Shown piece after piece: positions 40,174 through 61,167 of a stretch of DNA of 64,000 nt (its first letter is position 1; the number at the start of each line of letters is the position of its first letter). A program made the translations under genes and the position numbers. The notes beneath the pieces were generated by a model. It ran no database searches. It was not told the DNA's origin and worked only from the letters and a program-made list of their open reading frames with translations. Source of the DNA: an uncultured Thermococci archaeon (GTDB lineage: Archaea > CAYQAE01 > CAYVLA01); assembly GCA_964549615.1 (NCBI GenBank), contig CAZJVP010000081.1, positions 1-64,000 of the forward strand, in the 5' to 3' direction.

Positions 40174-41433
40174 TCAATTGACGGATATTGCACGCGTGAT
40201 GCGGTAGTTGCTGGGCTTGAAGCCCACCCCGTATGTTGTGGAGGTCGTCTCGCAAACGTAGTACTTCGTCCCGTTAACTTCGTAGAAGTCGCCTGACGCA
40301 CCTGCTACCGAGACTCCAACCATCATGTGGTCCTCCTCTCCATCGCCGTTTGTGTCGACCAGTAGGAGCACGACGGGATATCCTTCGCTTCCAGCAGAAC
40401 GCATTAGTCGTGCGGCAAGAACCGACGTGTCCTCGCAGTCGCCTCCTCCCTCCACCAGCGTCTCAAGCGGGTGCCTGACGTAGCCCTGGTCGGGTGCGTC
40501 GTAGATGTAGGGCAGGTACTGAACGAACTTGAGGATGTTGTTGACCCTTTGCAGATCGGTCGCAGCCTGACCATATAGATAATCCGCAAGCAGTTCGACA
40601 TCATTGCACGGCGTCTGCAGGACCTTGATGAAGGATTCTTCCTCGGCGTCACTGTAATGCGGTCCGACCGCTAGTGCGATATACTCGCTTCTGTTGAACC
40701 CGGTTCCGCGCAACCCGCTCGCGCCTTTCGACCAGTGCCTCTGACCCAAGTAGAACCAATCATAGTCTCGGTATATCTCACCCGCGAGGGAAATGGCATC
40801 TTCAAACTGGCGGAGCCGCGCACTGGAATCGTTGTAGAGCCCAAGCAGCCGCTCGTTTGAGGCCGTCAGGCTTTCGAGCTCTTGCATGATCGAGCTGATG
40901 TTCCGGTTCAGACCCTCAATGTCCGCATATGCCCCGGCAAGCATCTCCTCCAACACGGCACACGTTGCCCGCGACTCAGCGAGCTGGGCAGCCGATTCCT
41001 CGAGGAGTATCTTAAGATCATCTGCTTGGCGCTGCAACAGCGCAAGCGACTCGCTTGAGTTGCAGTATTGGTACGTGAGCTCCGATAGCGTCTGATTGAG
41101 TTGGGAATTGCGGGCCAGAAGGCTCTCTTTCTCCGCGGAAAGAGAGCTCAGGTAATCCTTCAACCCATCCATCTCAACCTGCATATCGCGCAGGTTCTCC
41201 TTCTCGGTCCTCAGCTCGACGAGCGTTCTCGCCAGCTCCATTGAAATGGCGTCCCTCTCGGCCGCTACGTCTCGATACATCCCTTTCCACAAACGATGCC
41301 TTCCCGTAGCAAGGTTCTGGTACCCAGCCTGCACGGCAAAGATCAGGCATAGCCCCGAGATAACGATCAACAAGGTGCAGATCGCTCTGGATGGTGGCGA
41401 CAAGGAAGACGACCTCCCGCGCTCCAGCGGCAC
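40174..41433 (-). CDS. Membrane-anchored coiled-coil protein with C-terminal transglutaminase-like (papain-fold) domain
   Basis: N-terminal TM, ~170-aa heptad coiled coil, then FVQYLPY..D, P.ETL..GGGDCEDTS (Cys), HMMVGV (His), YYVCETT. Confidence 0.8.
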   Translation of the reverse strand: MPLERGRSSSLSPPSRAICTLLIVISGLCLIFAVQAGYQNLATGRHRLWKGMYRDVAAERDAISMELARTLVELRTEKENLRDMQVEMDGLKDYLSSLSAEKESLLARNSQLNQTLSELTYQYCNSSESLALLQRQADDLKILLEESAAQLAESRATCAVLEEMLAGAYADIEGLNRNISSIMQELESLTASNERLLGLYNDSSARLRQFEDAISLAGEIYRDYDWFYLGQRHWSKGASGLRGTGFNRSEYIALAVGPHYSDAEEESFIKVLQTPCNDVELLADYLYGQAATDLQRVNNILKFVQYLPYIYDAPDQGYVRHPLETLVEGGGDCEDTSVLAARLMRSAGSEGYPVVLLLVDTNGDGEEDHMMVGVSVAGASGDFYEVNGTKYYVCETTSTTYGVGFKPSNYRITRAISVN

Positions 41434-46496: not shown

Positions 46497-46719
46497 TTCC
46501 GTCCCATGAGTGCTCGAGAAGTGTGTTTTGCATGGGCTAGCGACCTAGCATCGACTCCATGCATCGATCGAACCGCTCCGGAGGGCTCTACAAAGACATT
46601 TTTATGGATTTGGGAGGGCCGGACGGGAAGCCTGTGCGAAAGTGTTTTAGGCGGCCGTACTATCCCATTTTGAGGGGCGCTCCTTGGATAAGCTAGAATC
46701 CACAATTGTGCTGGCCGGC

Positions 46720-49167
46720 ATGAGGCTTTCCCCTTTGGAGATCGCCGCACTTGTATCCTCGTCGCTAGCCTTGGCAGTCCTCGTGGCGAGGATGGCACCG
46801 GTTGGAGCATACAAGCTCCCGGCCGCGATCGTTGTGTTTCTACTTGCCGCGATGGCCCAGCTCGCCCAGATCCAAAGATCCGGACCGCGGGACGCCGTGA
46901 GGATCATCGGGCCCCTGAGCCTAATCTGGATCGGGGCAGTTTCCCCCGTCATCTCGATCCAACTCATCGCGATACTTGCGGCACTGGTGATGTCCGCCGT
47001 CCTGGCGCTGCGCGCAAGGATCTATTCGATGAAGATGACTGACGTCGCGTTGATCGTCGTATCATCGCTGGCGGTCGGGGCTTTCGTATCCGCCCCCAAG
47101 GTCATGGGATACCTGACCATAATGGGACCGGGCACGGCCTTTGCGCTGTCCGCACTGATCTGCTTCATGGGCGAAACGTGGGCGCTCTCCAAGCCTGGGA
47201 CTGAAAACCTGCCAAGGACGGCATTCGCTCCGCTCGCCGTCCTAGGGGTCTACCGTCTCGGCCTCTCCAGCATCGACAACGCAGGGGCGATCATCCTCGC
47301 CGGGCTCTTCTACTACCTTGCGTTCCTGCGGTTGCTGAGGAGCAGGGCGAAGATAATGCATATCCTCGTCCTGGTGGTCGGATCCCTCGCGCTGTCCGGA
47401 TTCCTCTGGGGCGAGATCCCCCCGTTGCTGGGAACCGTGGGCTCGGACGCGGAGTGGTTCCTTTTGACGAACTCAGCATTCATGCTTGTGGTTTCCCTTT
47501 GCTACTATCTGTTCACCCCGGGGATAGTGGTCGTGATGACCATTCCGATCTGGTTCCTTGGTCTCTACTGGGTGTTGGACAGGTTCCTAGGCGATTATAG
47601 GCTGGCGGGCGTGTTCAGGGGCGCCGAGCTTGTGGTGGCGGTCGTCGCGTTGGCCGCGGCGTTGGGAGCCATGCAGTACGCGTCCAGAAGGGCTGCGGCC
47701 ACGGCTTACGGTGCCCCGGGAAGGTTTCAGATGAAACACATAGTCGTCTTGCTGATCGCGGCCATCGCCACGGGATCGTTCCTGACTGAGCCCACGCAGA
47801 TGGGATACTCTCCGATTCAGGATCAATCGACGTGGTTCTTCGTCTCATCCGGGACGTTTCTTCTCTTAATGATCGCGCTGTCGGCAGCATTCAGCTCAAG
47901 GGCAGTGGCTGCGGTCTTCGGCCCATTCATAATCCTGTTCGGGTCAAGGGTGGTAGGAGGACAGCTTCAGTACGGACCCCAGATCTTCCTTGGTGTGGCG
48001 GTGCTTCTCTCGATCCTCTCGTGGCTTGTTCTACTTGGAACGGATTTCGTGTCCCGGACCGTCGACTCGTTCATCGGGAGGTACACGGAACGCATGGCCG
48101 CCGTGTGGCGCTCCGAGGGCAAGGAAGAGGAGGCTGCAAAGGAGGAGTCAGCGGCTCTGAAGGGAAGGGAGGGACAGGCCCTCCAGATGCCCCCCGACCT
48201 GGACGAGCGGATACGCCGCATAAAGGCGCGCCTTGCCATCGACGAGGGCATCATCCGAGAGGTGGTGACTAACCTCTTGATGGGAAAGGATGTAATCCTG
48301 ATCGGTTCGCCGGGGACGGGCAAGACGGAGCTTGCAAAGATGATCCCCTCGATCATATTCGACAAGCCCTACAGGGTGGAGACGGCCACCTCGGACTGGA
48401 CGACGTACGACGTCATCGGCGGCCTGATGTACGATGGAAAGAAGATGACCATCAAGCATGGCTGCGTCACCCAGACCGCGCTCCAAGGCGAATGGCTGAT
48501 CATAGACGAGTTCAACAGGGCTGACATAGACAAGGCCTTCGGTGGAATGTTCACCGCGATCGAGTCGCACCGCCTGAACGTCCCGACCCTAGACAATACT
48601 ACGAGGACCATCCGAATACCCGACGACTATAGGATCATCGGCACCCTGAACACGTACGACAGGCACTTTTTGTTCAACATATCATACGCCCTGATGCGCC
48701 GGTTCGCCTTCATCGGGATGCCCATACCTCCGCGAGACGAGGAGCGAGCGATCCTCACCGGAGAGAGGGGAGTGGCGTTCGAGGACCTCAAGCAGGCACT
48801 GGGGCGCGGGAGGGTCGAGAGGGTGCTTTCCAGCACGCCCTACCGGAGCATAGTCGACAAGCTTCTCGACGCCATGAACCCCACCACTGGCATCAGGAAG
48901 ATAAGGGGGATCGGGACGGCCCAGATGATCGACACCATGAGGTTCGTGCTGATGGGAATGCTCACCCAAGGGGACGCTCAGCACTTGGACCTTCTGGACC
49001 GAGCGATCGAGTCCAATGTCCTTCCGCAGTTGGACGGCATGAACAGGGAAATAGACGAGGAGCTTGTGCAGACCATCGAGAGGGTCCTCGGCAAGGACTC
49101 CAGGGTTGCCTCGGAACTCAGGGCAATGACCATGGGACTTGACATACTTGACCAGCTCGCAGCATGA
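46720..49167 (+). CDS. McrB-family AAA+ GTPase with N-terminal polytopic membrane domain
   Basis: About 440 aa of hydrophobic segments (14-16 by eye); Walker A GSPGTGKT, WTTYDVIGG, Walker B WLIIDEFNRA, McrB signature GTLNTYD (NxxD), ALMRRFAF, ..LPQLDG. Confidence 0.85.
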   Translation: MRLSPLEIAALVSSSLALAVLVARMAPVGAYKLPAAIVVFLLAAMAQLAQIQRSGPRDAVRIIGPLSLIWIGAVSPVISIQLIAILAALVMSAVLALRARIYSMKMTDVALIVVSSLAVGAFVSAPKVMGYLTIMGPGTAFALSALICFMGETWALSKPGTENLPRTAFAPLAVLGVYRLGLSSIDNAGAIILAGLFYYLAFLRLLRSRAKIMHILVLVVGSLALSGFLWGEIPPLLGTVGSDAEWFLLTNSAFMLVVSLCYYLFTPGIVVVMTIPIWFLGLYWVLDRFLGDYRLAGVFRGAELVVAVVALAAALGAMQYASRRAAATAYGAPGRFQMKHIVVLLIAAIATGSFLTEPTQMGYSPIQDQSTWFFVSSGTFLLLMIALSAAFSSRAVAAVFGPFIILFGSRVVGGQLQYGPQIFLGVAVLLSILSWLVLLGTDFVSRTVDSFIGRYTERMAAVWRSEGKEEEAAKEESAALKGREGQALQMPPDLDERIRRIKARLAIDEGIIREVVTNLLMGKDVILIGSPGTGKTELAKMIPSIIFDKPYRVETATSDWTTYDVIGGLMYDGKKMTIKHGCVTQTALQGEWLIIDEFNRADIDKAFGGMFTAIESHRLNVPTLDNTTRTIRIPDDYRIIGTLNTYDRHFLFNISYALMRRFAFIGMPIPPRDEERAILTGERGVAFEDLKQALGRGRVERVLSSTPYRSIVDKLLDAMNPTTGIRKIRGIGTAQMIDTMRFVLMGMLTQGDAQHLDLLDRAIESNVLPQLDGMNREIDEELVQTIERVLGKDSRVASELRAMTMGLDILDQLAA

Positions 49168-49177
49168 GGTGCGGCCG

Positions 49178-52100
49178 TTGAGGACGGAATGGATCCTTGC
49201 GCTGGCGTTCGGTCTCTTCGCGTCAACGGTGATGGCGGGAACGGACAGGCAGCTCATGGCTTTCGAGGACAGCTCCTATAGCTTGGAGAACCGCTTCTTC
49301 AGGACCGGCTCGACCATATACTTCCAGGCGCTCGGGACCGCCCAAGCGTCAAGCCCCGTTCTTTACGTCAGATTGATGGGCGTCGAGATCCAGGTAGCCC
49401 TGACGGAGGTCGCACCCAGGTCAGGCATTTATCGGGGCGTCTTCCGGACCGGTAGCGTCACCGACGATTCCCGGGACATGATAGCGACCTACAACGGCGC
49501 TGTGCTCCAACTTCGGTCGGATATCGATCGGGACGGGATCACGGGAACCACGGACGTCCTCAACATCACCATCGACGACCAACCCCCCATTCCCCCGAGG
49601 TGGTGCGACGCCAACGCAACGCCCTATGGATCAGTCAGAGTGAACTGGACCGAGTACGGTGAAGCCGACTTCAGACGCTACACCGTTGTTCGCGCCCTGC
49701 GGCAGGATTTTGCCGATGCGGTCGACGTCGCGAACATAACGAACCCCAAGATCTTGCAGTGGACGGATCCTGAGTACAACCTGATCAGCGGTACCTCCTA
49801 TTGGTACGGCGTCTACGTCGTTGACCTCGCGGGCAACCCTTCCGTGATCAGGGCGGCCGAGAGGCCCGTCGTGCCCTTCAACGACACCAAGCCCCCGGGG
49901 AAGGTCACCGGGCTGAAGGCCACGGCGCCCGAAGGCGGCAACTCGATTAACCTGACATGGAAGGCAAGCCCTGAGAAGGACGTCGTGGGCTATAGCATCT
50001 ACCATTCCGTCGTCCCGCCGGTGGAGATCGCGAACAGAAACCTGATAGGCTTCGTCACCACCACCAGCTTCCTGCACGAGGGCATCTCGGCCAACTATCT
50101 TCACTTCTACGTCGTCGTCGCGTTCGACGAGGAGGAGAACCCGAGCCCTGCCTCAGCGCCCGTGAATGCAACGCCCGACGATACCCTCCCGCCGGGACCG
50201 CCGACCAACCTCGCCATCTCTACGGACGCGACCGGCTATCTGAATCTGACATGGTCTGCCCCGGTGGGCGAGGAGGTCTACAGATACCGGATCTATCGAT
50301 CCGAGGAGAGCGGCGCCCAGCAGTTCTGGAACCCCCTCGCCTCCACGAGCCAGACCAGTTACCTCGATCAGGCCGTCGTTCACGGGAAGACCTACTACTA
50401 CGTCGTCCGGGCATGCGACAGAGCGGGAAACGAGGAGAAGAACACCATACAGGTCGCCGCAACCTCCGTGGACACAACCCCGCCGAGACCCCCCAGGGGG
50501 CTTAGGGCCGAGGAGACGAACATAGGGGGTAGAATAAAGCTCGTGTGGCTTGCTCCCGGCGGCGAGGTCCCGGCGGAATACTGGATCTTCAGATCAACCA
50601 CCCCTGGCGGCCAGAACTTCTCCAACCCCTTGGCCGTCGTTTCAAAGACGCAGTTCACCGATCGGACCGTCCAAGACGGGGTCATCTACTACTACGTCGT
50701 GAGGGCCGTCGACATCGCCGGCAACGTCGAGACGAACACCAACGAGATAGCCGTTATGTCCCGGGACCTCACCCCACCGCCGCCCGTCCTTGACGTGATC
50801 GCACTCCCGCAGCAAGGCGGCGTGATAGGCGTAGGCTGGATGCCGCCCGGGTCCAATGTCGAGGATCCTGACCTTGCCAAGCAGATACGCGACGACGTCC
50901 ACCACTACAACGTCTACTGGAACACCTACCAAGGATTCAAGCCGGATCCCTCCAAGATGTTTTCGACAACCGAGACCAGCATACGCCACACCAACCTGAT
51001 CGATGGTCAGACCTACTACTACATAGTTCGCAGCGTGGACGCGGCGGGCAATGAGAACAAGGACGATGACAAGACCTCGGCGAGCGCGGTGGCTGATACC
51101 TCGCCGCCGGGCGCACCGACGAACCTCAAGACTTTTCGCCTCGAGGACGGCCGAATCAAGCTCGACTGGGACGCCCCCTCGGGCGAGCAACCCTACAGGT
51201 ACAACATCTACAGGTCGACGGCGCCGGGGACGCAGAGCTACAGATTCCCGTTCGCCATGGCGTTCGCGGAGACCGAGTGGATAGACGACAACGTGACGAA
51301 CGGACAACGCTATTACTACGTCGTCCGCTCGGCCGACTTCCTCCTCAACGAGGACGCGAACACGAATGAGGTCTGGAATTTCTCCGAGGACCTCATGCCG
51401 CCGCCGGCGCCCAGAGGACTGAAGGTCACTCAGCTGGCGAAGGGCGACCTAATGTTGAACTGGACCGAGCCGGAGTACCAGGTAGCCTCCCCAAGGGGGA
51501 CCGTTAGGGACGCTGACAGGGTCGCCTTCTACAGGGTCTACGTCTCGGAATTGCCCGGGCAACAGGACTTCAGCAGGCCCGTTGCAGAGACCAAAGAGAC
51601 CTACTTCATCGACAGGGGATTGAGGGATATGGTCAACTACTATTACGTCGTCAGGTCGGTTGACTCCGCCGGCAACGAGGATGAGAATCGGAACGAGGTG
51701 CGGGGGACCGCCGATGCCAGCCCGCCAAGCCCACCGGTGGATGCGTTCGCGCAGAGAAGCCCGAGGGGCGAGGTCGTGCTCTCGTGGTCGGACCCGGACG
51801 GGGAACCAGTCTTCGAGTACAGGATATACAAGTTTACTGGAAACGAGACGCAGACCTTCACATCCCCTCTGGCGGTGACAAGGAAGAACCTCTTCGTTGA
51901 CAACGACGTTTCACAGGCCGTTCAGTACCGATACGTTATCAGGTCCGTAGACAAGGCCGGGAACGAAGGCCGCAACACCAACGAGATATTGGCGCCCGTG
52001 CTGCTGGGCCCGCCGCTGAAGGTTGAGGCTCGAGCTTCCAAGGGCGGCGCGATCGACCTCACCTGGGAACCGCCGGCCGGAGCAAAGGACTCGGTCAGGG

Positions 52101-54160
52101 AATACAACATCTACAGGAGCGTTGTCCCCGGCGTGGAGCAGATCGGCGACCCGTGGGCCACCACCGTTCTGACGATGTACAAGGACACAAGCAGGGTGGT
52201 CGGCGGGACCATCCACTATATGGTCGATGGCACGCGCTACTACTACACGATCAGGGCGGTGGATATGTACGGCAACGAGGGCATGAGATCCGCAGAGGTC
52301 AGCGCGGTCTCCGACAGCCAACCGCCGGGCAAACCTCGCGACCTAACGGCGAGGGCCGAGCCGAACGGCGAGATCACGCTCATGTGGCTCGCTCCCGTCG
52401 GGGAAAGGGCGGCAAGCTACAGGATCTACCGATCCACAAAGTCCGGAACCTTCAACTTCTTGGTACCCCTCGACGAGACAACGAGGATCATCTACTATGA
52501 CAAGAGCGTCAAGAGCATGACGACCTATTACTACGTGGTCAGGGCGGTCGATGAAGCGGGCAACGAGGAACAGAACACCGATGAGGTGTCCGTCATGGCC
52601 TTCGATGCTCCGCCGCAAGCGCCCAGAAACCTCAGGGCCCAGGTGAGGCCCAACGGCTCAATAACCCTCATCTGGGACCAGCCGCTTGGCGAGATGGTTG
52701 CCCACTACAACATCTACCGTTCCCTTGAGTCCGGAAAGTACAACTACGCGGAACCATATGCAAGGACGACCCTGACGACTTTCACCGATGGCTTCGTGGA
52801 GCACGGCATCACCTACTACTACGTCGTCCGGGCAGTGGACAGCACCGGAAACGAGGAAGACAACAAGAACGAGATCTCAAGAATGTCCCAGGATACGGAG
52901 CCCCCGGCGCCTCCCGCCGGACTTGAAGCCATCCCTGCCGGGACAGGAAGCATTTTGTTGCAATGGCGGGACCCCGAGGGGGAGAGACCAGCAGGCTACA
53001 TCGTGTATCGGTCGCAATCTCCCTTCTTCAAGCCGGGAATCCAGAACCTCTTGGCCCGGACGCAAGGGAACTCCTACCTCGACGCTGGGCTGGGGGATGC
53101 CCAGACCTACTACTACGTGGTCCACTCCGTAGATTCGATAGGCAATGAGGATGAGAACGAGAACCGGGTGCAGGCAACGACCCCGCCGCCACCGCCTTCC
53201 AACCTTTCGGCATCGAACAACGAGAGAGGCGAGATCGTCCTCGTCTGGAAGATCCCCAGTACCCCCGCCGCGAAGTTCAGGATCTACAGATCCACGAGAA
53301 GCAGGAACTACGACCTCTCGAGCCCCTTGGCCGAAGTCCCCTATCCCACGAGCACCTACATCGATTCTGGACTTAACCAGAGCCAGACCTACTACTACGT
53401 CGTAAGGTCCGTGGATGCCCGCGGCGCCGAGGAGTCCAACCTGAACGAGGTGCACGCCGTCTCGATTGAGACGATCCCGCCGGCTTCTCCAACCGCCCTT
53501 CGGGCGACCCAGGAAATCAGCGGAGCGATCGGCCTGTCGTGGAACCACCCTGATCCGCGGGACGTATCGCTGTACAATATCTATCGCTGCGATGGGGCGC
53601 CCAACATCGCCAAGGCCACCCTGCTGGCATCGACGAACCAGACATCGTTTGTGGACGTCAACGTCACGAGCGGCAAGACATATTCCTATCTGGTGAGGGC
53701 GGTCGACATCCACGGCAATCAGGAGGGAAACGTCAACTGGACATCCATCATGTCGCTTGACACGCTTCCGCCGGCGCCCCCAAGCAACCTCACGGCGCGG
53801 GCTCGGTCTGGAGGATCGATCGAGCTGAGCTGGCAGCCGTCGGGCGAGAGAGGCGTCACCTACAGCATCTACAGGGCCATGTCTAAGGATCCAGCCAATG
53901 CCTCCCTCATAGCGTCCACCAACCTCACGACGTATGTGGATAGCAAGTTGATCAACGGCAGGGAGTACTTCTACCTGGTGCGAGCAAGGGATTCTGCAGG
54001 CAACGAGGAACGCAATGAGGTGATGGTGAGCGCGGTCGCCAGCAAGGCCGGGCCCAGGGTTCTGCTAGCATTGCTGCTGATCGCCGTCTTTGTCTCGGGA
54101 GCCTATGCTGTGGACAGACGCATACGGACCTCGCAGACGCGCACGAGCGCTCGTGGGTGA
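49178..54160 (+). CDS. Giant membrane-anchored fibronectin type III repeat surface protein
   Basis: Signal peptide WILALAFGLFASTVMA; ~130-aa N-terminal domain; 15 FN3 repeats; C-terminal TM VLLALLLIAVFVSGAYAV followed by RR. The GAGGTG RBS overlaps the upstream stop codon. Confidence 0.9.
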   Translation: MRTEWILALAFGLFASTVMAGTDRQLMAFEDSSYSLENRFFRTGSTIYFQALGTAQASSPVLYVRLMGVEIQVALTEVAPRSGIYRGVFRTGSVTDDSRDMIATYNGAVLQLRSDIDRDGITGTTDVLNITIDDQPPIPPRWCDANATPYGSVRVNWTEYGEADFRRYTVVRALRQDFADAVDVANITNPKILQWTDPEYNLISGTSYWYGVYVVDLAGNPSVIRAAERPVVPFNDTKPPGKVTGLKATAPEGGNSINLTWKASPEKDVVGYSIYHSVVPPVEIANRNLIGFVTTTSFLHEGISANYLHFYVVVAFDEEENPSPASAPVNATPDDTLPPGPPTNLAISTDATGYLNLTWSAPVGEEVYRYRIYRSEESGAQQFWNPLASTSQTSYLDQAVVHGKTYYYVVRACDRAGNEEKNTIQVAATSVDTTPPRPPRGLRAEETNIGGRIKLVWLAPGGEVPAEYWIFRSTTPGGQNFSNPLAVVSKTQFTDRTVQDGVIYYYVVRAVDIAGNVETNTNEIAVMSRDLTPPPPVLDVIALPQQGGVIGVGWMPPGSNVEDPDLAKQIRDDVHHYNVYWNTYQGFKPDPSKMFSTTETSIRHTNLIDGQTYYYIVRSVDAAGNENKDDDKTSASAVADTSPPGAPTNLKTFRLEDGRIKLDWDAPSGEQPYRYNIYRSTAPGTQSYRFPFAMAFAETEWIDDNVTNGQRYYYVVRSADFLLNEDANTNEVWNFSEDLMPPPAPRGLKVTQLAKGDLMLNWTEPEYQVASPRGTVRDADRVAFYRVYVSELPGQQDFSRPVAETKETYFIDRGLRDMVNYYYVVRSVDSAGNEDENRNEVRGTADASPPSPPVDAFAQRSPRGEVVLSWSDPDGEPVFEYRIYKFTGNETQTFTSPLAVTRKNLFVDNDVSQAVQYRYVIRSVDKAGNEGRNTNEILAPVLLGPPLKVEARASKGGAIDLTWEPPAGAKDSVREYNIYRSVVPGVEQIGDPWATTVLTMYKDTSRVVGGTIHYMVDGTRYYYTIRAVDMYGNEGMRSAEVSAVSDSQPPGKPRDLTARAEPNGEITLMWLAPVGERAASYRIYRSTKSGTFNFLVPLDETTRIIYYDKSVKSMTTYYYVVRAVDEAGNEEQNTDEVSVMAFDAPPQAPRNLRAQVRPNGSITLIWDQPLGEMVAHYNIYRSLESGKYNYAEPYARTTLTTFTDGFVEHGITYYYVVRAVDSTGNEEDNKNEISRMSQDTEPPAPPAGLEAIPAGTGSILLQWRDPEGERPAGYIVYRSQSPFFKPGIQNLLARTQGNSYLDAGLGDAQTYYYVVHSVDSIGNEDENENRVQATTPPPPPSNLSASNNERGEIVLVWKIPSTPAAKFRIYRSTRSRNYDLSSPLAEVPYPTSTYIDSGLNQSQTYYYVVRSVDARGAEESNLNEVHAVSIETIPPASPTALRATQEISGAIGLSWNHPDPRDVSLYNIYRCDGAPNIAKATLLASTNQTSFVDVNVTSGKTYSYLVRAVDIHGNQEGNVNWTSIMSLDTLPPAPPSNLTARARSGGSIELSWQPSGERGVTYSIYRAMSKDPANASLIASTNLTTYVDSKLINGREYFYLVRARDSAGNEERNEVMVSAVASKAGPRVLLALLLIAVFVSGAYAVDRRIRTSQTRTSARG
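49574..54045 (+). repeat. 15 tandem protein-level FN3 repeats (~95-110 aa each)
   Basis: Counted 15 copies of PP..P..L.......i.L.W...Y.IYRS...D....YYYVVRAVD..GNE. Confidence 0.85.
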
Positions 54161-54167
54161 GACGCGA

Positions 54168-55538
54168 ATGGAGGAAGCGCTCGAAGAATCGATGAAGTCC
54201 TTCATGAGGAAGAGGGTCTTCGCGCTCCTGCTCACCAACTTCCTTGGGAACCTGGAGCTAAAGAGGATAGAAGTCCAGATCGGCCGTGAGACCAAACTCG
54301 ACCTATCGCGGAAGAAGTTCGAGGACGCCTTCAAGCTGAACTCGCTGGAATCGATCTCCCACATCCTGCTCAACGAGATAATGCCCATGATAGAGAAGAA
54401 GCCCAGCTTCTTCTCGACCAGGCAGAGGAGCATCTGCGAGAAGGAGATAAGGGGCGTGATCGACTGGCCCCGAACCTTCAAGCGCAACCTCTGCCAGGGA
54501 CAGCTGATCGGCAAGGAGTTCGTCGTGGTGAACCCTCGACAGGAGTGGGACACCCCCGAGAACCTGCTCTCCATGCTTTGCCTCCTTGACATAGTGAAGA
54601 ACACGTCGTACTTCAAGAGAACGTTCAGGGAATCGGTGGAGAGCTCAAAGTGGTCCGAGAGGATCGTGGAGTCGCGGGTCCTCGACGCGATTGCCCAAGA
54701 AGGGCTGAGAAGAACCAAGATGCCCTACTTCAGGGACATGGAGGAAGAAGTCGAGGAACTCTTGGACGACTCGTCAAAGATCGAGGAGCTGGAACGGGAG
54801 TTCGAAAGGCGGGTTCAGCTCAATCTTATTCGGAACCCCGGATACGAGCGAGTCTATCAGTGGCGAAGGGAGTTCTTGGGGCAGGCCGACGTGCAGAGGG
54901 AGTCGACCAGGATCCTCAGGGACATACCGGGCGAGGGCATCGAGTACATGTCCAAGCTCTACGAGATCTGGACGCTCTTCGAGGTCGCCGACGTCATGGA
55001 GGAGCAGGTCCAGCTTTTCAAGTACTACTCCGAGGTCGGCGAGGGCCCCCTCTTCACCGGGACCCTGCCCAACCCCAGCCGCGAGGGAATCTCATCCGAG
55101 AACATCGAGATCGAGCTCTACTACCTTCCGGCACAACGCGTGGCGGAGGGCGTATGGCGGAGGAGCGCTCAAGCAAAAAGCTTTCTCCGAGCCTTCTACC
55201 CAGACGGGACGAAGGAGGACAGAGCCATCTACCTGCGAGGCTCCTGCCCCATGGAGTTCTCACCCGGCCAGAAGAGGAGGGTCGAGGTGTCGGTTGGGAT
55301 CTTCCCAAGGTTCAGGGAAATCCAGACCCAGATCGAGCCCGAGGTTGACCTGATCGCTCTCCCGCTTCACCCGTCCGACGACAGGGAAGCTCTGAACCGC
55401 AAGCTCCTGTACAATCTCACCAAGTACATCCGCGGCATTCCGTTCTCGTCCGAATCCAAAGGAATCGTGCTTCATCCCGCGACCTGGTCACCCCTGACAG
55501 GCAGCCCCGGCCAAGCCCTGGGCAGCGTTGAGGCCTGA
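54168..55538 (+). CDS. McrC/DUF2357-like protein, nuclease motif not recognisable
   Basis: IRGVIDWPRT, WDTPENLL, NPGY..VY and KLYEIWTL are hallmark McrC/DUF2357 segments; no PD...(D/E)xK motif is seen downstream; starts 7 nt after the FN3 gene. Confidence 0.72.
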   Translation: MEEALEESMKSFMRKRVFALLLTNFLGNLELKRIEVQIGRETKLDLSRKKFEDAFKLNSLESISHILLNEIMPMIEKKPSFFSTRQRSICEKEIRGVIDWPRTFKRNLCQGQLIGKEFVVVNPRQEWDTPENLLSMLCLLDIVKNTSYFKRTFRESVESSKWSERIVESRVLDAIAQEGLRRTKMPYFRDMEEEVEELLDDSSKIEELEREFERRVQLNLIRNPGYERVYQWRREFLGQADVQRESTRILRDIPGEGIEYMSKLYEIWTLFEVADVMEEQVQLFKYYSEVGEGPLFTGTLPNPSREGISSENIEIELYYLPAQRVAEGVWRRSAQAKSFLRAFYPDGTKEDRAIYLRGSCPMEFSPGQKRRVEVSVGIFPRFREIQTQIEPEVDLIALPLHPSDDREALNRKLLYNLTKYIRGIPFSSESKGIVLHPATWSPLTGSPGQALGSVEA

Positions 55539-55575
55539 GCGGGGAGCCGAGACGAAAGGCGTGCGGGGTGATGAG

Positions 55576-55695
55576 CGCCGGGGAAGGGAGTTGAACCCTT
55601 GAGCCCCACGAGGGGGCACCAGCTTCCGGTGGCAACTCCGCTCCAGGCTGGCGCATCTGGACGGCCTCAGCCCTAGTCCACTCTGCCACCCCGGC
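55576..55695 (-). tRNA. tRNA-Ser(GGA) with two introns (D-loop 55657-55673; anticodon loop ~55625-55640)
   Basis: Acceptor GCCGGGG/CCCCGGC with G73, T-arm AAGGG-TTCAACT-CCCTT, long variable arm, anticodon stem CCAGC/GCTGG with CT-GGA. Removing 17 + 16 nt gives an 87-nt Ser-type tRNA. Confidence 0.88.
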
Positions 55696-56413: not shown

Positions 56414-57376
56414 CTACCTCCAGTACCTAGGGTAGACGCCTCTCGGCATCACTACCCTGGCAAGATCGACCGCCATTCCCGAGTCCCGCTCGAATATCTC
56501 CTTTGCCGACAAGCGGCTTTGCCCCACGCCGATAAGTTCCCCCTTCAACGTCAGCACCGCAACGGTGCCCATGGCTGTAACGGTGCTCTCGCACTTGACG
56601 ATCCCAGGCAGGGCAAGGCCTGCCCCGTTGCAAAGCGCTTCCACGGCCGTGTCTCGGACCCAGATCTTGGGCATGTCTTTGATGAACTCCTCGACCGGCA
56701 GCACTAGTCTCCTGAGCTCGGTCTCGTCACCGTGTTCTCTGAGATAGTGCATCGCGTCGACCAGATCTTGGAGCGTGCAGCAGTCGCTCTCCGAGAAACG
56801 GCCCGAGCGAATCCTTCTCAACTCGGACATGTTCGCCCCGACGAGCAGCGCTTCGCCCATATCCCGACACAGCTTCCTGATGTAGGTTCCTGCCTCGCAC
56901 GAGACCTCGAATAGGATGTCGCGCCCCTTGCGCTCGATGAGGTTTAGGGAGTAGATCATCCTTTCCCTGGACTCCCTTTTGACAGCCGCCTTGACGGGCG
57001 GTGTCTGGAGAATCTTGCCGGTGAAGGCCGAGAAGACCTCCCGGACCTTTCCGTCATCGACTTCGCCGTGAAGCGTCATCACACAGACGTAGGCCTTGTC
57101 CGACTTGAGCAGGTACCTTACGAGACGGGTTGACCGCCCCAGAGCTATCGGCAAAACTCCCGACACCTTAGGATCCAGGGTGCCGCCGTGTCCGGCCCTC
57201 TCCACCTTGAGAACGTCCCTGACCCAAGCAACTACTTGGTGGGACGTGGGGCCGCGGGGCTTGTCCAAGTTGACTATGCCAAAGTCCAACAGCTGACTGA
57301 CGGGACGCTTGTAGGGATCCACGCCAAACTGAGGGTCGGTGGTGTCCTTGGATCTCAGGTATATCTCAACATCCAC
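56414..57376 (-). CDS. cbf5: H/ACA pseudouridine synthase Cbf5 (TruB family) with PUA domain
   Basis: NLDKPRGPTSHQV, GHGGTLDPKVSGVL, QTPPVKAAVKR, CEAGTYIRKL, C-terminal PUA domain. Confidence 0.95.
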   Translation of the reverse strand: MDVEIYLRSKDTTDPQFGVDPYKRPVSQLLDFGIVNLDKPRGPTSHQVVAWVRDVLKVERAGHGGTLDPKVSGVLPIALGRSTRLVRYLLKSDKAYVCVMTLHGEVDDGKVREVFSAFTGKILQTPPVKAAVKRESRERMIYSLNLIERKGRDILFEVSCEAGTYIRKLCRDMGEALLVGANMSELRRIRSGRFSESDCCTLQDLVDAMHYLREHGDETELRRLVLPVEEFIKDMPKIWVRDTAVEALCNGAGLALPGIVKCESTVTAMGTVAVLTLKGELIGVGQSRLSAKEIFERDSGMAVDLARVVMPRGVYPRYWR

Positions 57377-57405
57377 CGCCGACCACCAAGAACGCGGGGA
57401 TCTTC

Positions 57406-57663
57406 TCAGGAGATGAATGCTTCGAGGAGGCCCGACTTCTCGAGAACCTTTATGATCTCCTCGTCCTCCGCCCTCCTGCGAATCTCGATCTTCTTGTCCA
57501 ACGGCTCCAGGTGGGCCACGTTGCATCGTCGCCTCTTCACGCCCGATATCTTCTCGGGCCCCGTGACGAGGACGAAGTTCTTGTCGATGTGGTCGACAAC
57601 GATGCACTTCCTTCCGCTCTCATTTCCCTGAATCTTTATGCATACCCTTCCTATTTCGATCAT
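57406..57663 (-). CDS. rpl14e: 50S ribosomal protein L14e
   Basis: IEIGRVCIK..G.E.GRKC.VVD.IDKNFVLVTGP...GVKRRRCN..HLEP. Confidence 0.96.
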   Translation of the reverse strand: MIEIGRVCIKIQGNESGRKCIVVDHIDKNFVLVTGPEKISGVKRRRCNVAHLEPLDKKIEIRRRAEDEEIIKVLEKSGLLEAFIS

Positions 57664-58211
57664 GTCTGTCTCCTCCTTATCCCTCTCGCCCCGAGCACAT
57701 CCAGGGCCTTGCGGACGATTTCGACGATCTCACCCGGCAGATACGTTCCGCTGTTGACCACGATGTCGTAAACCTCCATATCGCGCACGTCGATGTTGTA
57801 TATCTGCTTGTACCTGCGCCTCTCGCTCTCCTCCCTCTCCTTGACGCGCCTAATAGCTTCTTCCGTGGAGAGTCCGTCCCTCTCGGCGATCCTCCTTGCC
57901 CTCTCCTCAAATCGTGCGACGAGGCACACCTTGAGGTCCGGATCCTCGATCATCCATGCGCTCAGCCTCGAATCCACCACCACGTCCTTTCCTCGGGAAA
58001 GCCGCACCTGCATCTCGTCGACCGCGCGGTCTACTCCGTGATCCTCCTCCGCGAGCTTCGAGTATGCCTCAAGATCCATCCCCCTTTCGGCTGCCATTTG
58101 CCTGAAAACTTGGCCAGCGCTTAGGTATTCCAGCCCTAGCTCGCATGCCAGCAACTTGGCAAACGTCGTCTTGCCGCTCCCGGGCAACCCGCCCACCGTG
58201 ATCGTGGCCAA
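57660..58211 (-). CDS. cmk: Cytidylate kinase (archaeal type)
   Basis: GLPGSGKTT, SAGQVFR, DSRLSAW, RE.SE..RY..IY.ID. Confidence 0.93.
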   Translation of the reverse strand: MATITVGGLPGSGKTTFAKLLACELGLEYLSAGQVFRQMAAERGMDLEAYSKLAEEDHGVDRAVDEMQVRLSRGKDVVVDSRLSAWMIEDPDLKVCLVARFEERARRIAERDGLSTEEAIRRVKEREESERRRYKQIYNIDVRDMEVYDIVVNSGTYLPGEIVEIVRKALDVLGARGIRRRQT

Positions 58212-58219
58212 CTAAAGCC

Positions 58220-58480
58220 TCAGCCCCCCATTTCTTTCCTGGCGAGTTCGACCATCTTTCGCCTTGCGCACACGGGGCAAAGCGATCCGCCGAATGGCCG
58301 ATTTGGCTTCCGGCTTGACTTGGATCGCCCGGCCTTCCGGTGAGGGACCGAGCTCAGGATCCTGCCACATTCGCATCTTGCCTTCCCGTGTTTCTTTCTC
58401 TTCAAACGGACCTGAACCCCTGTAAGGGTCCTCCTCACCCTCATTCTCATCGAACGCGACCTTAGGCTCCTGCGCGGCAT
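58220..58480 (-). CDS. rpl34e: 50S ribosomal protein L34e
   Basis: MPR..RSRS..RT, C.CG..L, PNRPFGG.LC..C; operon position. Confidence 0.92.
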   Translation of the reverse strand: MPRRSLRSRSMRMRVRRTLTGVQVRLKRKKHGKARCECGRILSSVPHRKAGRSKSSRKPNRPFGGSLCPVCARRKMVELARKEMGG

Positions 58481-59323
58481 CTAGACCACTCCGAACATCT
58501 TCCTGAATATTGAGCTGAACCAGGTGGCGGATGCAAAGTACCATGCTATGAAGCCGAACTGGTCAGCACTGATAGCATTGTTCTGGTGGAAGAACTGCAT
58601 GAAGCTCAACCTGAATGGCAGCTCGACCACGGGCACTAGGTTGTAATGGGCCTGGAGGAAGTAGAATACAGCGAACAGCGGAATCATGTAAATTATCATG
58701 GGCTTGAACTGGCTTCTCATCAGTTCCGACTGAAGGCTTAACATCTCCGCCTGCTTCTTCTTCATCTTGGCAATCTTCTTCTGGTCGCCGCTGCGCTGTG
58801 CGGCCATCAATTCCTTCTGGAACTCGCTCACCTTCTCCCGTACGACCTTGAGCCTCTTCTGATCAACCATGTAGTAGCTCAGCAACGTGGTGAAAAGTGA
58901 GGTGAGCGCGGAGAGGACGAAGATGACGAACTTGGCATTGCCCTGGCTCATCATCTTGGTGACCTCGAACTCGGCGACAAGCATCTCGCTCACGATCCTT
59001 TGCTGCTCGAAATCCACCCCGCTTACGTTGAGGTCAAGTCTCCACCTGCCCTCTCGGTTGAAAGGCGTCCTCCAGCTGAAGTTGCTCCCCGCCCCCACGT
59101 CGGCAAGCTTTTCAAGCCGGATCACGGTTCCGTCCGGACCGACGAAGTTGCCTTCCATGCTTATGCCCGTCAAAGAGGGATTGCCGATGGTGAGCCTGAA
59201 GAACACAGTGCTTCCTTCCATCACGCTTGCGTTCAGAACCTGGAGGGTGGAGCCTTGGCAGGACGCTTCCTGCAGAACCGCAATGAACAGCAGCGCGGCC
59301 CATGCTTTGACCCGTATTCGCAC
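58481..59323 (-). CDS. EMC3/TMCO1 (DUF106, Oxa1 superfamily) membrane protein with an extra N-terminal exported domain
   Basis: C-terminal TM-coiled-coil-TM core (VDQKRLK..QKEL..A, FKPMIIYMIP, VELPF, WYF..S..RK.FG); ~130-aa N-terminal extension with a signal peptide. Confidence 0.88.
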   Translation of the reverse strand: MRIRVKAWAALLFIAVLQEASCQGSTLQVLNASVMEGSTVFFRLTIGNPSLTGISMEGNFVGPDGTVIRLEKLADVGAGSNFSWRTPFNREGRWRLDLNVSGVDFEQQRIVSEMLVAEFEVTKMMSQGNAKFVIFVLSALTSLFTTLLSYYMVDQKRLKVVREKVSEFQKELMAAQRSGDQKKIAKMKKKQAEMLSLQSELMRSQFKPMIIYMIPLFAVFYFLQAHYNLVPVVELPFRLSFMQFFHQNNAISADQFGFIAWYFASATWFSSIFRKMFGVV

Positions 59324-59324
59324 C

Positions 59325-60689
59325 TCATCTCCTCCCCAGGAACTCACGGACGATCGGGAACATCTCCGCGGCCTGCTCCCTCTGGATCTCCTGGTACAAC
59401 TGGTATACTATGCCCACGGTCAGCAACACGCCCGTTCCGGAACCTAGCGCATTGGTGAGGTCCGCGAAGCTGGCAAGAAGGCCCACGAATATCCCTCCAA
59501 GGACCGTCACCGCAGGGATGTAACGATCCAGGATCTTCTCGATGATCCTCCTGTCCTTGCGAAAGCCCGGGATGTGCATGCCGGACTCGTGTATCTGCCT
59601 TGCAACCTCCCGTGGCCCGACGTTCGTCAGCTCGGACCAGAGCAAAGCGAAGACCACGCAGCAGGCGATGACGACGAGAACGTAAACCAAGGCATGGACA
59701 GCATACCCGGGGGTTGACCCGAAAGTGAAAAGATCGCCCGGGTGTCGCATGTAGTAGACGAGGCCGGATCTTGGCACGTTGTCGACCACCTTGCCGAGGA
59801 TGTATATGCCCCTCGAGCTCAGAACGCTAGCCCAAAGCTGGATGTTGGCGAAGAGCGCCATCGTGAGTATGACTGGGATGTTCGAGGTGTAGACGAACCT
59901 GATCGGGTACTTTCCCTTCATGCCTACCCTGCTGTATGAGAGGGGAATCTCCACCCTCATGCCCTCCGCGTACACGACAATTAGAAAGACGACGATCGTG
60001 AAGAAAACGGAGACCATGCTCGGCATCGGATATGGCCTCCAGATCTGTGGGGTTCCCTTCAGAAGCGAGCCGAGGAAGGCCGGGATCGCTCCAACGACCT
60101 GTCCGTAGCTTGGGTCACGAAGGGGATTGATCGACCCTGAGACGATCTCCTGCGATACGCCTGCGGCTATGAATAGGCTCACGCCGCTCCCGATCCCCCA
60201 CTTCGAAACCACCTCGTCGAGGAACATGACGAGGATGCCCCCGATCGCGAGCTGCACCATGATGATCCAGAGCGGGACCACGGGCCTGTACGAATAGCTG
60301 TAGACGAATCCCTCGAAGAAGCAGAGGATGATCGTTAGGAGTTTCTGGGTTCCTTGAAAAAGTGCCCTGTGATCGGGTTGGCTCAGATCAAGGTCAATGA
60401 TCTTCCCGCCGACCAAGAGCTGCAGCACTATGCTGGCCGTGACGATCGGGCCGATCCCGAGCGCCAGAATGGATCCTCGGCTTCCGGCCAAGACGGCCCG
60501 AAGGGGCCCGAAGAGATCAGCTAGGGATTCCTCCGCGATCCCATACACGGGTATCTGGAGAAGGGCGTAGTAGAGGACCAGGACCCCGCCCGTCCAGATG
60601 AACTTCTCCTTGAACGAAACGTGGCGCTTGGGCTTGTCCACTTCCGGCAGAAACCTGAGAACCGGATCCAGTATCTCCAACCTAGACAA
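59325..60689 (-). CDS. secY: Preprotein translocase subunit SecY
   Basis: LPEV..P, LGIGPIVTASI..QLL, DEVVSKWGIGSGVSLFIAA, YTSNIPVIL, IPGFR, GSGTGVLL. Confidence 0.97.
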   Translation of the reverse strand: MSRLEILDPVLRFLPEVDKPKRHVSFKEKFIWTGGVLVLYYALLQIPVYGIAEESLADLFGPLRAVLAGSRGSILALGIGPIVTASIVLQLLVGGKIIDLDLSQPDHRALFQGTQKLLTIILCFFEGFVYSYSYRPVVPLWIIMVQLAIGGILVMFLDEVVSKWGIGSGVSLFIAAGVSQEIVSGSINPLRDPSYGQVVGAIPAFLGSLLKGTPQIWRPYPMPSMVSVFFTIVVFLIVVYAEGMRVEIPLSYSRVGMKGKYPIRFVYTSNIPVILTMALFANIQLWASVLSSRGIYILGKVVDNVPRSGLVYYMRHPGDLFTFGSTPGYAVHALVYVLVVIACCVVFALLWSELTNVGPREVARQIHESGMHIPGFRKDRRIIEKILDRYIPAVTVLGGIFVGLLASFADLTNALGSGTGVLLTVGIVYQLYQEIQREQAAEMFPIVREFLGRR

Positions 60690-60711
60690 GCCAACAACCG
60701 TCCTATGAACC

Positions 60712-61167
60712 TCAATCGCCCGGACGAGCCGCCTCGATGCGAAGTTCCCCTCCCGCCTCCGAGATCTTCCTCGACGCAATCGAGGTTGAGCTCTTGGCGG
60801 TGATGACCCATGCGTTCTTAGCCAGGCCGCCGCCGAGGAGTTTGTCAAAGCCGATCTTGGAAAGGTCCATATAGACCTTGCCGTCCTTCATCTCCGCGAG
60901 ACCGGACGAGAGGTATGAATCCAGTCTTTCTTCGAGGGAGCCAATGTTGATTGCGCGGGGAGCTCCACGCAGCACGGGCGGCCTGCCCGGTCCCTTGTGG
61001 ACGAAGTACGAGGGGTCGTACCTCAGATACCAGCTCTTGCGGTGTTTGAACGCGCCAGCGTTGCCCCTGCCTCCGCGGTGTCCGGCGCCCCTGCGCATCT
61101 TGGCGTTTCCGCCTCCGCAGGTCCTGCTGCCGCGATACTTCCTCGTCTTCCTGTTCTTCAGAGCCAT
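60712..61167 (-). CDS. rpl15: 50S ribosomal protein L15
   Basis: KTRKYRGSRTCG.G..RGAG.RGGRGNAG, K.LG.G, A..KI..AGG. Confidence 0.95.
   Translation of the reverse strand: MALKNRKTRKYRGSRTCGGGNAKMRRGAGHRGGRGNAGAFKHRKSWYLRYDPSYFVHKGPGRPPVLRGAPRAINIGSLEERLDSYLSSGLAEMKDGKVYMDLSKIGFDKLLGGGLAKNAWVITAKSSTSIASRKISEAGGELRIEAARPGD

Follow-up and report, generated by a model that had tools for sequence, protein, structure and literature searches.

An archaeal operon in which McrB-type and McrC-type genes flank a fibronectin type III surface protein: a putative McrBC derivative with a possible role in the cell envelope

The window analysed here is a stretch of 64,000 nucleotides (nt) from an uncultured Thermococci archaeon (contig CAZJVP010000081.1, here C81, of a 3.2-Mb genome in 104 contigs, 99.5% complete). 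Three open reading frames (ORFs) lie on the same strand with tight spacing and fill positions 46684-55538. Gene 1 encodes a polytopic membrane protein with a C-terminal AAA+ domain of the McrB type, gene 2 a surface protein of fibronectin type III (FN3) repeats, and gene 3 a soluble protein that descends from McrC. Their features are collected in Table 1. An earlier note, made from the letters of this DNA, had described three co-oriented genes with gaps of 10 and 7 nt and a ribosome-binding site (RBS) of gene 2 that overlaps the stop of gene 1, and the ORFs and their junctions bear this out. Gene 1 has two candidate starts, TTG 46684 (827 amino acids, aa) and ATG 46720 (815 aa), and a TGA stop at 49165-49167. 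The earlier note had taken the ATG. The 36 nt between both starts encode MDKLESTIVLAG, and this stretch is conserved as protein (M-D/E-K/R-L-E-S-T-I-V) in 11 of 11 orthologous clusters; because the residues 5' of the ATG are conserved in this way, the TTG is the likelier start. The TTG start of gene 2 is aligned with the start Met of its orthologues. Translation of gene 2 is predicted to be coupled to that of its neighbours.

Table 1. Features of the three-gene operon and of its parts (positions in the window)
Feature	Positions	Strand	Basis
Candidate promoter: A/T-rich boxes TTTTATGG (46600-46607) and TTTTAGG (46645-46651)	46600..46651	+	sequence inspection
Gene 1: membrane domain fused to putative McrB-clade AAA+ NTPase, 827 aa	46684..49167	+	ORF, orthologue N-terminus
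Polytopic membrane domain, aa ~13-453, ~16 predicted helices, very short loops	46720..48042	+	hydropathy, AlphaFold2 (AF2) model
Invariant juxtamembrane segment SRT.DSFIGRYTERMA, then acidic E-rich linker	48043..48195	+	orthologue alignment A3
McrB-type AAA+ domain, aa ~505-827	48196..49164	+	AAA_5 match, PDB match, maximum-likelihood (ML) tree
GAGGTG RBS-like site, overlaps gene 1 stop codon	49166..49171	+	sequence inspection
Gene 2: surface protein, 1660 aa; start TTG 49178, stop 54158-54160	49178..54160	+	ORF
GGTG RBS-like site, overlaps gene 2 stop, 8 nt 5' of gene 3 ATG	54156..54159	+	sequence inspection
Gene 3: soluble, McrC-derived protein, 456 aa; start ATG 54168	54168..55538	+	ORF, homology
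McrC N-terminal-type domain, aa 7-279, ends in YE(I/L)W..FE helix	54186..55004	+	hhalign A1 vs A5
Divergent C-terminal alpha/beta domain, aa 280-456, at McrC nuclease position	55005..55535	+	MAFFT, hhalign, AF2

The AAA+ domain of gene 1 carries a Walker A motif (GSPGTGKT), a Walker B motif (DEFNRA, within LIIDEFNRA), the McrB-specific NxxD signature NTYD (within GTLNTYDRH) and ALMRRF. All of these had been read as McrB-type in the earlier note; Walker A, DEFNRA, NTYD and RRF are invariant in 11 of the 11 gene 1 orthologues, and the domain is 85-95% identical across the gene 1 family. Its Pfam match was stronger for AAA_5 (E 3e-18, 66.6 bits) than for AAA_3 (E 5e-9, 36.6 bits). The best single-stretch match in the PDB was E. 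coli McrB (6hz4; E 2e-13, 51.8 bits), with Walker A, DE(F/I)NRA, NT(Y/A)DR and RRF all aligned; the LNTYDRH of gene 1 stands opposite the MNTADRS of E. coli McrB. Further matches were McrB of Thermococcus gammatolerans (E 2.6e-10), CbbQ (2.4e-4) and NorQ (1.9e-3), the CbbQ and NorQ rows ranging together from 2.4e-4 to 6e-3. Midasin ranks first in this search only because up to eight weak stretches, of at most 17 bits each, were summed. In NCBIfam, gene 1 matched McrB at E 5.6e-12 and GvpN at E 5.9e-8, both far under the equivalog cut-offs. The McrB score was 45 bits against a cut-off of 637, and gene 1 is therefore not an orthologue of E. coli McrB.

A hidden Markov model (HMM) of the family AAA+ domain gave 51-133 bits for archaeal McrB-labelled proteins, as against 14-38 bits for MoxR/GvpN-like proteins. 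In the ML tree, the gene 1 family together with McrB is split from MoxR and GvpN/CbbQ with support of 99/96, and the family itself has 95/98. This tree is a small one, with some long branches: it was made of 16 chosen rows (five of the 12 family clusters, four McrB-labelled, five MoxR-like, one GvpN/CbbQ-like and one unlabelled), the weak AAA matches L047-L053 and the L035 protein being left out. By these sequence comparisons, the AAA+ domain is assigned to the McrB clade and not to MoxR. The earlier note had named a grouping with MoxR or dynein-like ATPases as one of three outcomes that would speak against its proposal of a membrane-tethered McrBC derivative, none of which was observed; the scores and the tree both place gene 1 with McrB. 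No N-terminal nucleic-acid recognition domain was found in gene 1, the N-terminal 450 aa of which consist of membrane helices without a Pfam domain. We infer from the motifs that the AAA+ domain would hydrolyse GTP, be stimulated by the McrC-type protein and form hexamers. When aa 495-827 of gene 1 (AAA+ domain) were paired with aa 1-300 of gene 3 (N-terminal domain) in a complex prediction, the score was 0.10 against a mark of 0.32.

A polytopic membrane N-terminus of ~440 aa had been described in the earlier note, and this is in agreement with a Kyte-Doolittle scan, in which ~14-16 hydrophobic segments were seen in aa 1-440 (ATG form) and none later in gene 1. The AF2 model of aa 1-468, built from 8 sequences, shows 16 helices with low confidence (predicted local distance difference test, pLDDT, 51.2). 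If there are 16 helices and the AAA+ domain is cytoplasmic, the N-terminus should also lie inside; in other words, an N-in/C-in topology is predicted. The number of Lys and Arg residues in the loops, 8 inside versus 3 outside, agrees weakly with this topology. The membrane domain appears to be built of repeat units of ~110 aa. When the units were compared with hhalign, units 2 and 4 gave 96% (E 7e-10), units 3 and 4 gave 50% and the other pairs were weak, values that are possibly inflated by the hydrophobic composition. Identity across the family is 50-77% in the membrane domain, lower than in the AAA+ domain, and no Cys or His in it is invariant among the 11 orthologues. A Foldseek search of the PDB with this low-confidence model gave no match at E <= 0.001; the TM-scores were 0.11-0.19, and the top rows were POT and MurJ.

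Gene 3 by itself gave no match in Pfam, NCBIfam, PADLOC or the PDB, and searches of the PDB with the single sequence or with a family-only profile returned nothing relevant. Its close family consists of 14 clusters with at least 62% identity (alignment A1). Searching 1.84 billion representatives with the A1 profile gave 59 proteins at E <= 0.001, one of which is the family itself. The other 58 are distant relatives (E 1.7e-12 to 9.5e-4), aligned mostly over aa ~56-283; a Pfam scan of 25 of them found DUF2357/McrC in none and two sub-threshold PDDEXK_7 matches. Alignment A2 was made of six family members and 35 of the 58 distant relatives, with 23 fragments or much longer or weaker forms left out. 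The A2 profile matches solved McrC structures (E. coli 6hz4_M, E 1.2e-6; T. gammatolerans, E 6.2e-4) through the PD...DAK nuclease block, and in a weak second stretch IRGxIdWpkT is aligned with the N-terminal region of McrC. Comparison by hhalign of A1 with a distant McrC-like family (A5, 37 sequences) gave 99.8% and E 2.6e-30 over 256 columns, corresponding to aa 7-279 of gene 3. A5 in turn matched 15 archaeal DUF2357+PDDEXK_7 proteins at 98.7% and E 1.7e-16. Through these intermediate sequences, gene 3 can be recognized as a descendant of McrC. This means that the McrC/DUF2357 motifs which the earlier note had reported in gene 3 hold transitively, from A1 through A5 to McrC/DUF2357; the direct library matches and the catalytic motif of the nuclease are missing.

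The N-terminal two-thirds are the most conserved part of gene 3. The alignment of the A1 and A5 profiles stops at the YE(I/L)W..FE helix, just before the nuclease core. In the MAFFT columns that hold PD and DAK in the relatives, six of six family members show F(Y/F)P-x and variable non-catalytic residues, and among the residues that are invariant in all 14 close family members, those of the C-terminal part do not include a D...(D/E)xK set. The family consensus of the distant relatives, unlike the gene 3 family, has an intact PD..DAK. From the profile alignments and the motif columns, gene 3 is considered to consist of an McrC N-terminal domain and a diverged C-terminal alpha/beta domain, from which the PD-(D/E)xK catalytic residues have been lost. 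The AF2 model of gene 3 (14 sequences) has a pLDDT of 49.5; aa ~310-440 are mostly at 66-88, and only the C-terminal third is usable. In a wide fold search with this poor model, the best match was a signal peptidase complex subunit (Z 5.5), and McrC (6hz4_M) was at rank 20, with Z 4.2 and a root-mean-square deviation of 4.2 over 93 residues, amid unrelated rows. Several restriction enzymes had Z 3.8-4.4, and the search is non-discriminating. Look-alikes of gene 3 in the ESM Atlas by language-model features include DUF2357/PDDEXK_7 clusters (0.90-0.92), which serve as a lead only.

A side observation concerns eight of the distant gene 3 relatives, of 750-820 aa (P0037, P0050, P0062, P0065, P0069, P0072, P0073 and P0083). 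Only their N-terminal ~280 aa are matched, and they bear long C-terminal extensions, one with a weak HEPN_Swt1 match. These proteins may be McrC-like proteins with alternative effector domains.

The product of gene 2 begins with a signal-peptide-like sequence (aa 1-21), followed by a conserved, beta-rich head of ~115 aa (aa 22-135), the FN3 region (aa 136-1612), a membrane anchor (aa ~1624-1646) and a short basic tail. A hydropathy scan showed the hydrophobic N-terminus and one C-terminal membrane segment. The FN3 region (Pfam fn3, E 2e-52) comprises 15 units of 82-110 aa by linker-based cuts, with proline-rich linkers between them, and 13 strict FN3 motif matches. The secreted, membrane-anchored protein of ~1,660 aa with 15 FN3 repeats that the earlier note had described is thus recovered with its signal-like N-terminus, 15 units and C-terminal segment. 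The best NCBIfam row, exoglucanase CbhB, is due to the FN3 repeats only. There are 22 N-x-S/T sequons and only 3 Cys. Identity among the repeats is 21-51% (mean 34%), whereas full-length orthologues share 60-82% with few gaps. Because the orthologues are far more alike than the repeats, the FN3 array is old, and its 15 units are fixed in position. From one end of the protein to the other, column conservation stays even (0.60-0.82 per 100 columns), and no hypervariable tip was seen.

A conserved juxtamembrane motif, SKxGPR(I/V)LLA, precedes the membrane helix of gene 2. Together with the helix and the basic tail, it was considered as a signal of the sortase/archaeosortase type. In a scan of 6196 open frames of at least 150 aa, the only real protein of the genome with this motif at its C-terminus was the gene 2 product itself, with one further chance match in a 195-aa frame. 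As the motif is confined to one real protein and the membrane domain of gene 1 has no invariant Cys or His, the idea of a sorting signal was dropped.

Among 41 archaeal genomes, gene 1 is full-length in three (G000, G001 and G002) and is matched in two pieces in a fourth (G003); these are all four genomes of one archaeal family. All the other gene 1 matches in the 41 genomes begin at query residue 465 or later, that is, they cover the AAA+ part only, and the membrane-McrB fusion was not found outside this family in the genomes searched. The same fusion, 818-836 aa long, recurs in 12 protein clusters that were drawn from several sources, and also on contigs assembled from different metagenomes. 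With the A2 profile, 13 of 301 genomes match, namely the four family genomes at E <= 1e-87 and nine distant ones. A related-locus search with alignment A1 found three loci, all in the same archaeal family. The trio of genes is present in four of the four family genomes. In a synteny set of 10 loci (the window, three genome loci and six metagenome contigs), it is complete in all seven loci that are long enough, three more being cut by contig ends, and the FN3 gene lies between genes 1 and 3 in each of the seven. The trio is accordingly conserved and the FN3 gene is no one-off insertion; the earlier note had held the opposite outcome to be damaging. Identities of the three genes co-vary with those of the flanking genes across loci. 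Even in the closest pair, protein identity does not exceed 81-84%, so that synonymous sites are probably saturated. As all of these loci come from related members of a small lineage, the conservation counts are not independent of each other. The NCBI label of the kin is 'Candidatus Hadarchaeota archaeon'. The family genomes are unusually large (2.4-4.0 Mb), and the four sequencing runs found to contain this DNA are hot-spring and mat metagenomes, none of them RNA.

Upstream of the operon lies the gene for a PolX-PHP polymerase, and downstream, on the other strand, are genes for an MTS methyltransferase, Cbf5/TruB, cytidylate kinase (cmk), an EMC3/YidC-like insertase and SecY; this order is kept in the relatives. 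The operon is vertically inherited in a core, syntenic housekeeping neighbourhood and is not part of a defence island. The guanine-cytosine content of the three genes (0.57-0.62) is equal to that of the flanks. The A/T-rich boxes 5' of gene 1 are candidate archaeal TATA-like promoter elements. A scan for bacterial-type promoters and terminators gave counts at the level of shuffled sequence, the tool having been built for bacteria and being ill-suited to archaea.

Several other observations were made around the locus. The downstream genes include a housekeeping block at 56414-60848 on the minus strand (Cbf5/TruB-PUA pseudouridine synthase, cytidylate kinase, EMC3/TMCO1 (YidC-like) insertase and SecY); genes for membrane-protein insertion thus lie within 5 kb of the operon, which may be a coincidence. 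In the window, PolX is separated from gene 1 by a spacer of 187 nt; in two metagenome contigs, L038 and L039, ~3.2 kb of additional DNA lies there. The gene 1 orthologue of G003, the most fragmented relative (contig C22, locus L013), is matched as aa 6-92 and 196-826 in different frames, so that either the membrane domain has suffered a frameshift or a deletion, or the assembly is in error. At 40174-41433, on the minus strand, 5 kb off and on the other strand from the operon, is a 419-aa protein with a weak match to the transglutaminase core (E 5.7e-5), which is conserved only in the closest relative (L040). Transglutaminase had figured in the loose parallel that the earlier note drew with actinobacterial FN3-MoxR-DUF58-transglutaminase clusters. 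Just 3' of gene 3, at 55566-55695 on the minus strand, is a tRNA-like sequence of ~125 nt with a 7-bp acceptor stem and a T-arm GGGTTCAACTCCC. These features point to an intron-containing tRNA of class II (Ser/Leu-type). Nothing in the window was reported by ARAGORN or, at the gathering score, by Rfam; at a permissive Rfam threshold, tRNA-like families alone matched the T-arm region (E 0.15-0.31). Finally, a C-terminal-anchor scan revealed in G000 a paralogue family of ~420-520 aa with at least 10 copies (on C11, C16, C20, C48, C74, C88, C90 and C91, for example), which share a C-terminus made of ..LKDRAL.W.Y..EW, a membrane helix and MV.RR.LYRE.

Compared with the McrBC systems of E. coli K-12 and T. 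gammatolerans (PDB 6hz4, 6ut6, 6ut3-8), gene 1 has the same Walker A, DE(I/F)NRA, NxxD and RRF motifs, gene 3 keeps the McrC N-terminal domain, and the McrB-type and McrC-type genes likewise share one operon. However, a membrane domain of ~16 helices here replaces the DNA reader, the catalytic residues of the McrC nuclease are lost, a 1660-aa FN3 gene lies between both genes, and the locus belongs to the core of the chromosome and is not mobile. The nearest outgroup is formed by soluble archaeal McrB-McrC pairs, of the ordinary McrBC type, in three genomes (G107, G191 and G251), the AAA+ domains of which score 75-133 bits with the gene 1 family HMM. In these pairs, too, the AAA+ gene comes first and is followed by an McrC-like gene, and they hold the closest relatives of gene 3 outside the family (G107, E 3e-24). 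A 720-aa AAA_5 protein is encoded directly upstream of the gene 3 relative in G107, and an 832-aa MrcB_N + AAA_5 protein in the same position in G191; in G251, a 661-aa MrcB_N + EVE + AAA_5 protein is encoded upstream with one 159-aa ORF between. Such pairing with AAA_5 genes was seen in three of the nine genomes with distant relatives. The pairs differ from the present operon in that the AAA_5 proteins have soluble N-termini without membrane segments and no FN3 gene lies between. Among the best 120 of 2073 AAA+ relatives, the 12 family clusters have at least 84% identity, after which identity drops to at most 40%. The other 108 of these 120 commonly carry EVE, Mrr_N-type or other readers, and none is polytopic. 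It should be added that two McrB-like AAA_5 proteins of the Nitrosopumilus type (P0190 and P0194, ~940 aa) have a precomputed cupredoxin domain (PF00127), an unusual non-DNA N-terminal fusion.

CoCoNuT and CoCoPALM are described in Bell et al. 2024 (eLife, PMC11090510) as McrBC derivatives in which McrB has no small DNA-reader domain and McrC is often nuclease-dead. In CoCoPALM, according to the same paper, the McrB GTPase carries a fused FtsB-like segment with a membrane helix and a coiled coil, and it is linked to genes for the assembly of pili. The present operon resembles both in the loss of the reader domain and the nuclease, and CoCoPALM in its link to the membrane and to a surface structure. 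It differs from them in having NxxD instead of NxD, no coiled coil and no nuclease, a polytopic 16-helix membrane domain, an FN3 partner and an archaeal host. Because of CoCoPALM, membrane-linked McrBC derivatives are not wholly without precedent (Bell et al. 2024, PMC11090510). The statement of the earlier note that no system with this architecture had been described holds insofar as no operon combining membrane-McrB, FN3 and McrC-like proteins was found in the literature, judged mostly from search listings, and needs to be tempered by this membrane-linked precedent. The words 'fn3', 'fibronectin', 'transmembrane' and 'Hadarchaeota' are absent from four text supplementary files of Bell et al. 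2024, the full trees of which may hold the branch unnamed.

The MoxR-class AAA+ proteins (RavA-ViaA, NorQ-NorD and CbbQ-CbbO) belong to the same broad AAA_5/AAA_3 group as gene 1. They are separated from it by their lower scores and by the tree (99/96), and a VWA-domain match was found in neither gene 2 nor gene 3; to our knowledge, MoxR is also without the NxxD signature. MoxR-class proteins form small rings that remodel membrane complexes or large protein complexes, each together with a dedicated partner, and provide a functional analogy for a role in the envelope.

A type IV restriction system requires a reader of modified DNA and an active nuclease. Neither was found in the three proteins by Pfam, NCBIfam or the motif columns. 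As there is no DNA reader and no nuclease, the operon does not encode a restriction enzyme; it is built from McrBC parts, yet by function it falls outside the type IV restriction systems. Because the parts for binding and cutting DNA have been lost, a membrane domain has been gained and the gene of a surface protein is flanked, the motor has probably been re-used for a job in the envelope. We would give about an even chance to the view that the operon is an exapted, lineage-specific McrBC which serves the envelope by anchoring, positioning, clustering or turning over the FN3 stalk, or by signalling from it. By analogy with solved McrBC, the AAA+ domains would form a ring beneath the membrane, each subunit being joined by its acidic linker to its own 16-helix bundle, and the N-terminal domain of gene 3 would be inserted into the ring and stimulate GTP hydrolysis. 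The movements of the ring would then act on the membrane domains and no longer on DNA. As operon structure and co-conservation suggest, the partner or client would be the FN3 protein, which has its anchor in the same membrane. The complex would then anchor, cluster, position or turn over the long glycosylated FN3 stalk, or relay a signal from it. A more specific picture is put forward tentatively, as somewhat improbable in its details: a hexameric McrB-type GTPase ring with ~96 helices (6 x 16) and a nuclease-dead McrC switch might mechanically operate or signal through a glycosylated FN3 stalk of ~50 nm. The operation of the stalk in this picture, equally tentative, might be retracting, tensioning, clustering or shedding, for instance.

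Several points weigh against an envelope role. The direct comparison of A1 with 15 DUF2357 (PF09823) proteins gave only 7.8% in hhalign, in addition to the missing Pfam match, and for the membrane domain neither Pfam, NCBIfam, the ESM Atlas nor the fold search gave a usable match. Both AF2 models are poor, as given above for gene 3 (pLDDT 49.5) and for the membrane domain (51.2). The partner role of the FN3 protein is drawn only from operon position and co-conservation. Because the lineage is small (4 genomes, ~12 protein clusters), the description 'core gene' is based on few related genomes, and a core chromosomal position may be compatible with defence as well. Furthermore, McrB is not known to us to act on proteins or membranes.

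Envelope-localised antiviral defence, one of the two readings offered in the earlier note, would make the FN3 stalk a sensor or decoy for virions, the 16-helix domains the effector and the nuclease-dead McrC the switch of the GTPase; we consider it unlikely, though a serious rival. The same holds for the modes of action that it might involve, for example membrane permeabilisation, abortive infection or blocked genome entry. Membrane effectors are common in defence systems, and the ancestry is from such a system, the nearest relatives being soluble McrB-McrC pairs with readers of modified DNA. However, the conserved, repeat-built 16-helix domain is far larger than typical pore-forming effectors, and the FN3 protein has no hypervariable region. 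The family genomes carry the operon syntenically among housekeeping genes in four of four cases, and not in a patchy or island-like distribution. In PADLOC-DB 2.0, a library dated 2023, the only match is IetA (E 0.005, 25 residues at the P-loop), which is at chance level. Bell et al. 2024 (PMC11090510) is of use to both sides: McrBC derivatives with inactivated McrC nucleases stay in defence contexts there, but the inactive nuclease is always paired with HEPN or another nuclease, none of which was found here. None of these points against defence is decisive. Taken with the lost catalytic residues, the missing DNA-binding and nuclease domains and the even conservation of the FN3 protein, they weaken this reading, and the other proposal of the earlier note, that an McrBC was given a new use in transmembrane signalling or in the assembly of surface structures, is the better fit.

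An improbable alternative is a transporter or channel that is gated or energised by the GTPase: the AAA+ ring with its McrC-like regulator would power or gate the 16-helix domain, which would move a solute, lipid or glycan, and the FN3 stalk would capture the substrate or dock to a surface or a partner cell. The compact membrane domain, with its very short loops and internal repeats, is like many transporters, its weak top Foldseek rows are transporters (POT and MurJ, at TM-scores of only 0.11-0.19), and FN3 arrays often accompany carbohydrate-active surface proteins. However, neither by sequence nor by fold was a transporter family matched significantly, the model used for the fold search being of low confidence, and we know of no McrB-clade AAA+ protein that energises transport. 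Much less probable still is that the gene of an unrelated surface protein was inserted by chance into an otherwise ordinary McrBC system for type IV restriction. The McrB-type AAA+ domain and the McrC-derived gene do share one operon, but 16 membrane helices stand in the place of the DNA-recognition domain, the PD-(D/E)xK residues are absent in six of six aligned family members, and the FN3 gene, with coupled starts, lies between both genes in seven of seven complete loci. That the locus is an assembly artefact, as the earlier note had allowed, or a decaying pseudogene cluster is hardly credible. The split gene 1 orthologue does come from a metagenome-assembled genome (G003; 500 contigs, 91% complete), but the fusion recurs in independent assemblies, as described above, with uninterrupted reading frames and an AAA+ domain that is highly conserved across the family. 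Other roles share the probability that remains beside the envelope, defence and transporter readings.

Textbooks present McrBC as the GTP-dependent restriction enzyme, and relatives of McrBC have until now been interpreted as defence systems directed at nucleic acids. In the present operon, GTPase and activator are retained under very strong constraint, but the two functions that concern nucleic acids are gone. The operon also provides a clean test of the McrB-McrC GTPase switch uncoupled from DNA. In the more specific picture of a ring that operates the stalk, this would be the first McrB-clade AAA+ protein working on a membrane or protein substrate rather than on nucleic acid. If the envelope role is true, a motor from a defence system would have been taken into service at the cell surface. 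A membrane domain without any library match would gain a function, and the operon would offer a handle on the surface architecture of an almost unstudied lineage of uncultured hot-spring archaea.

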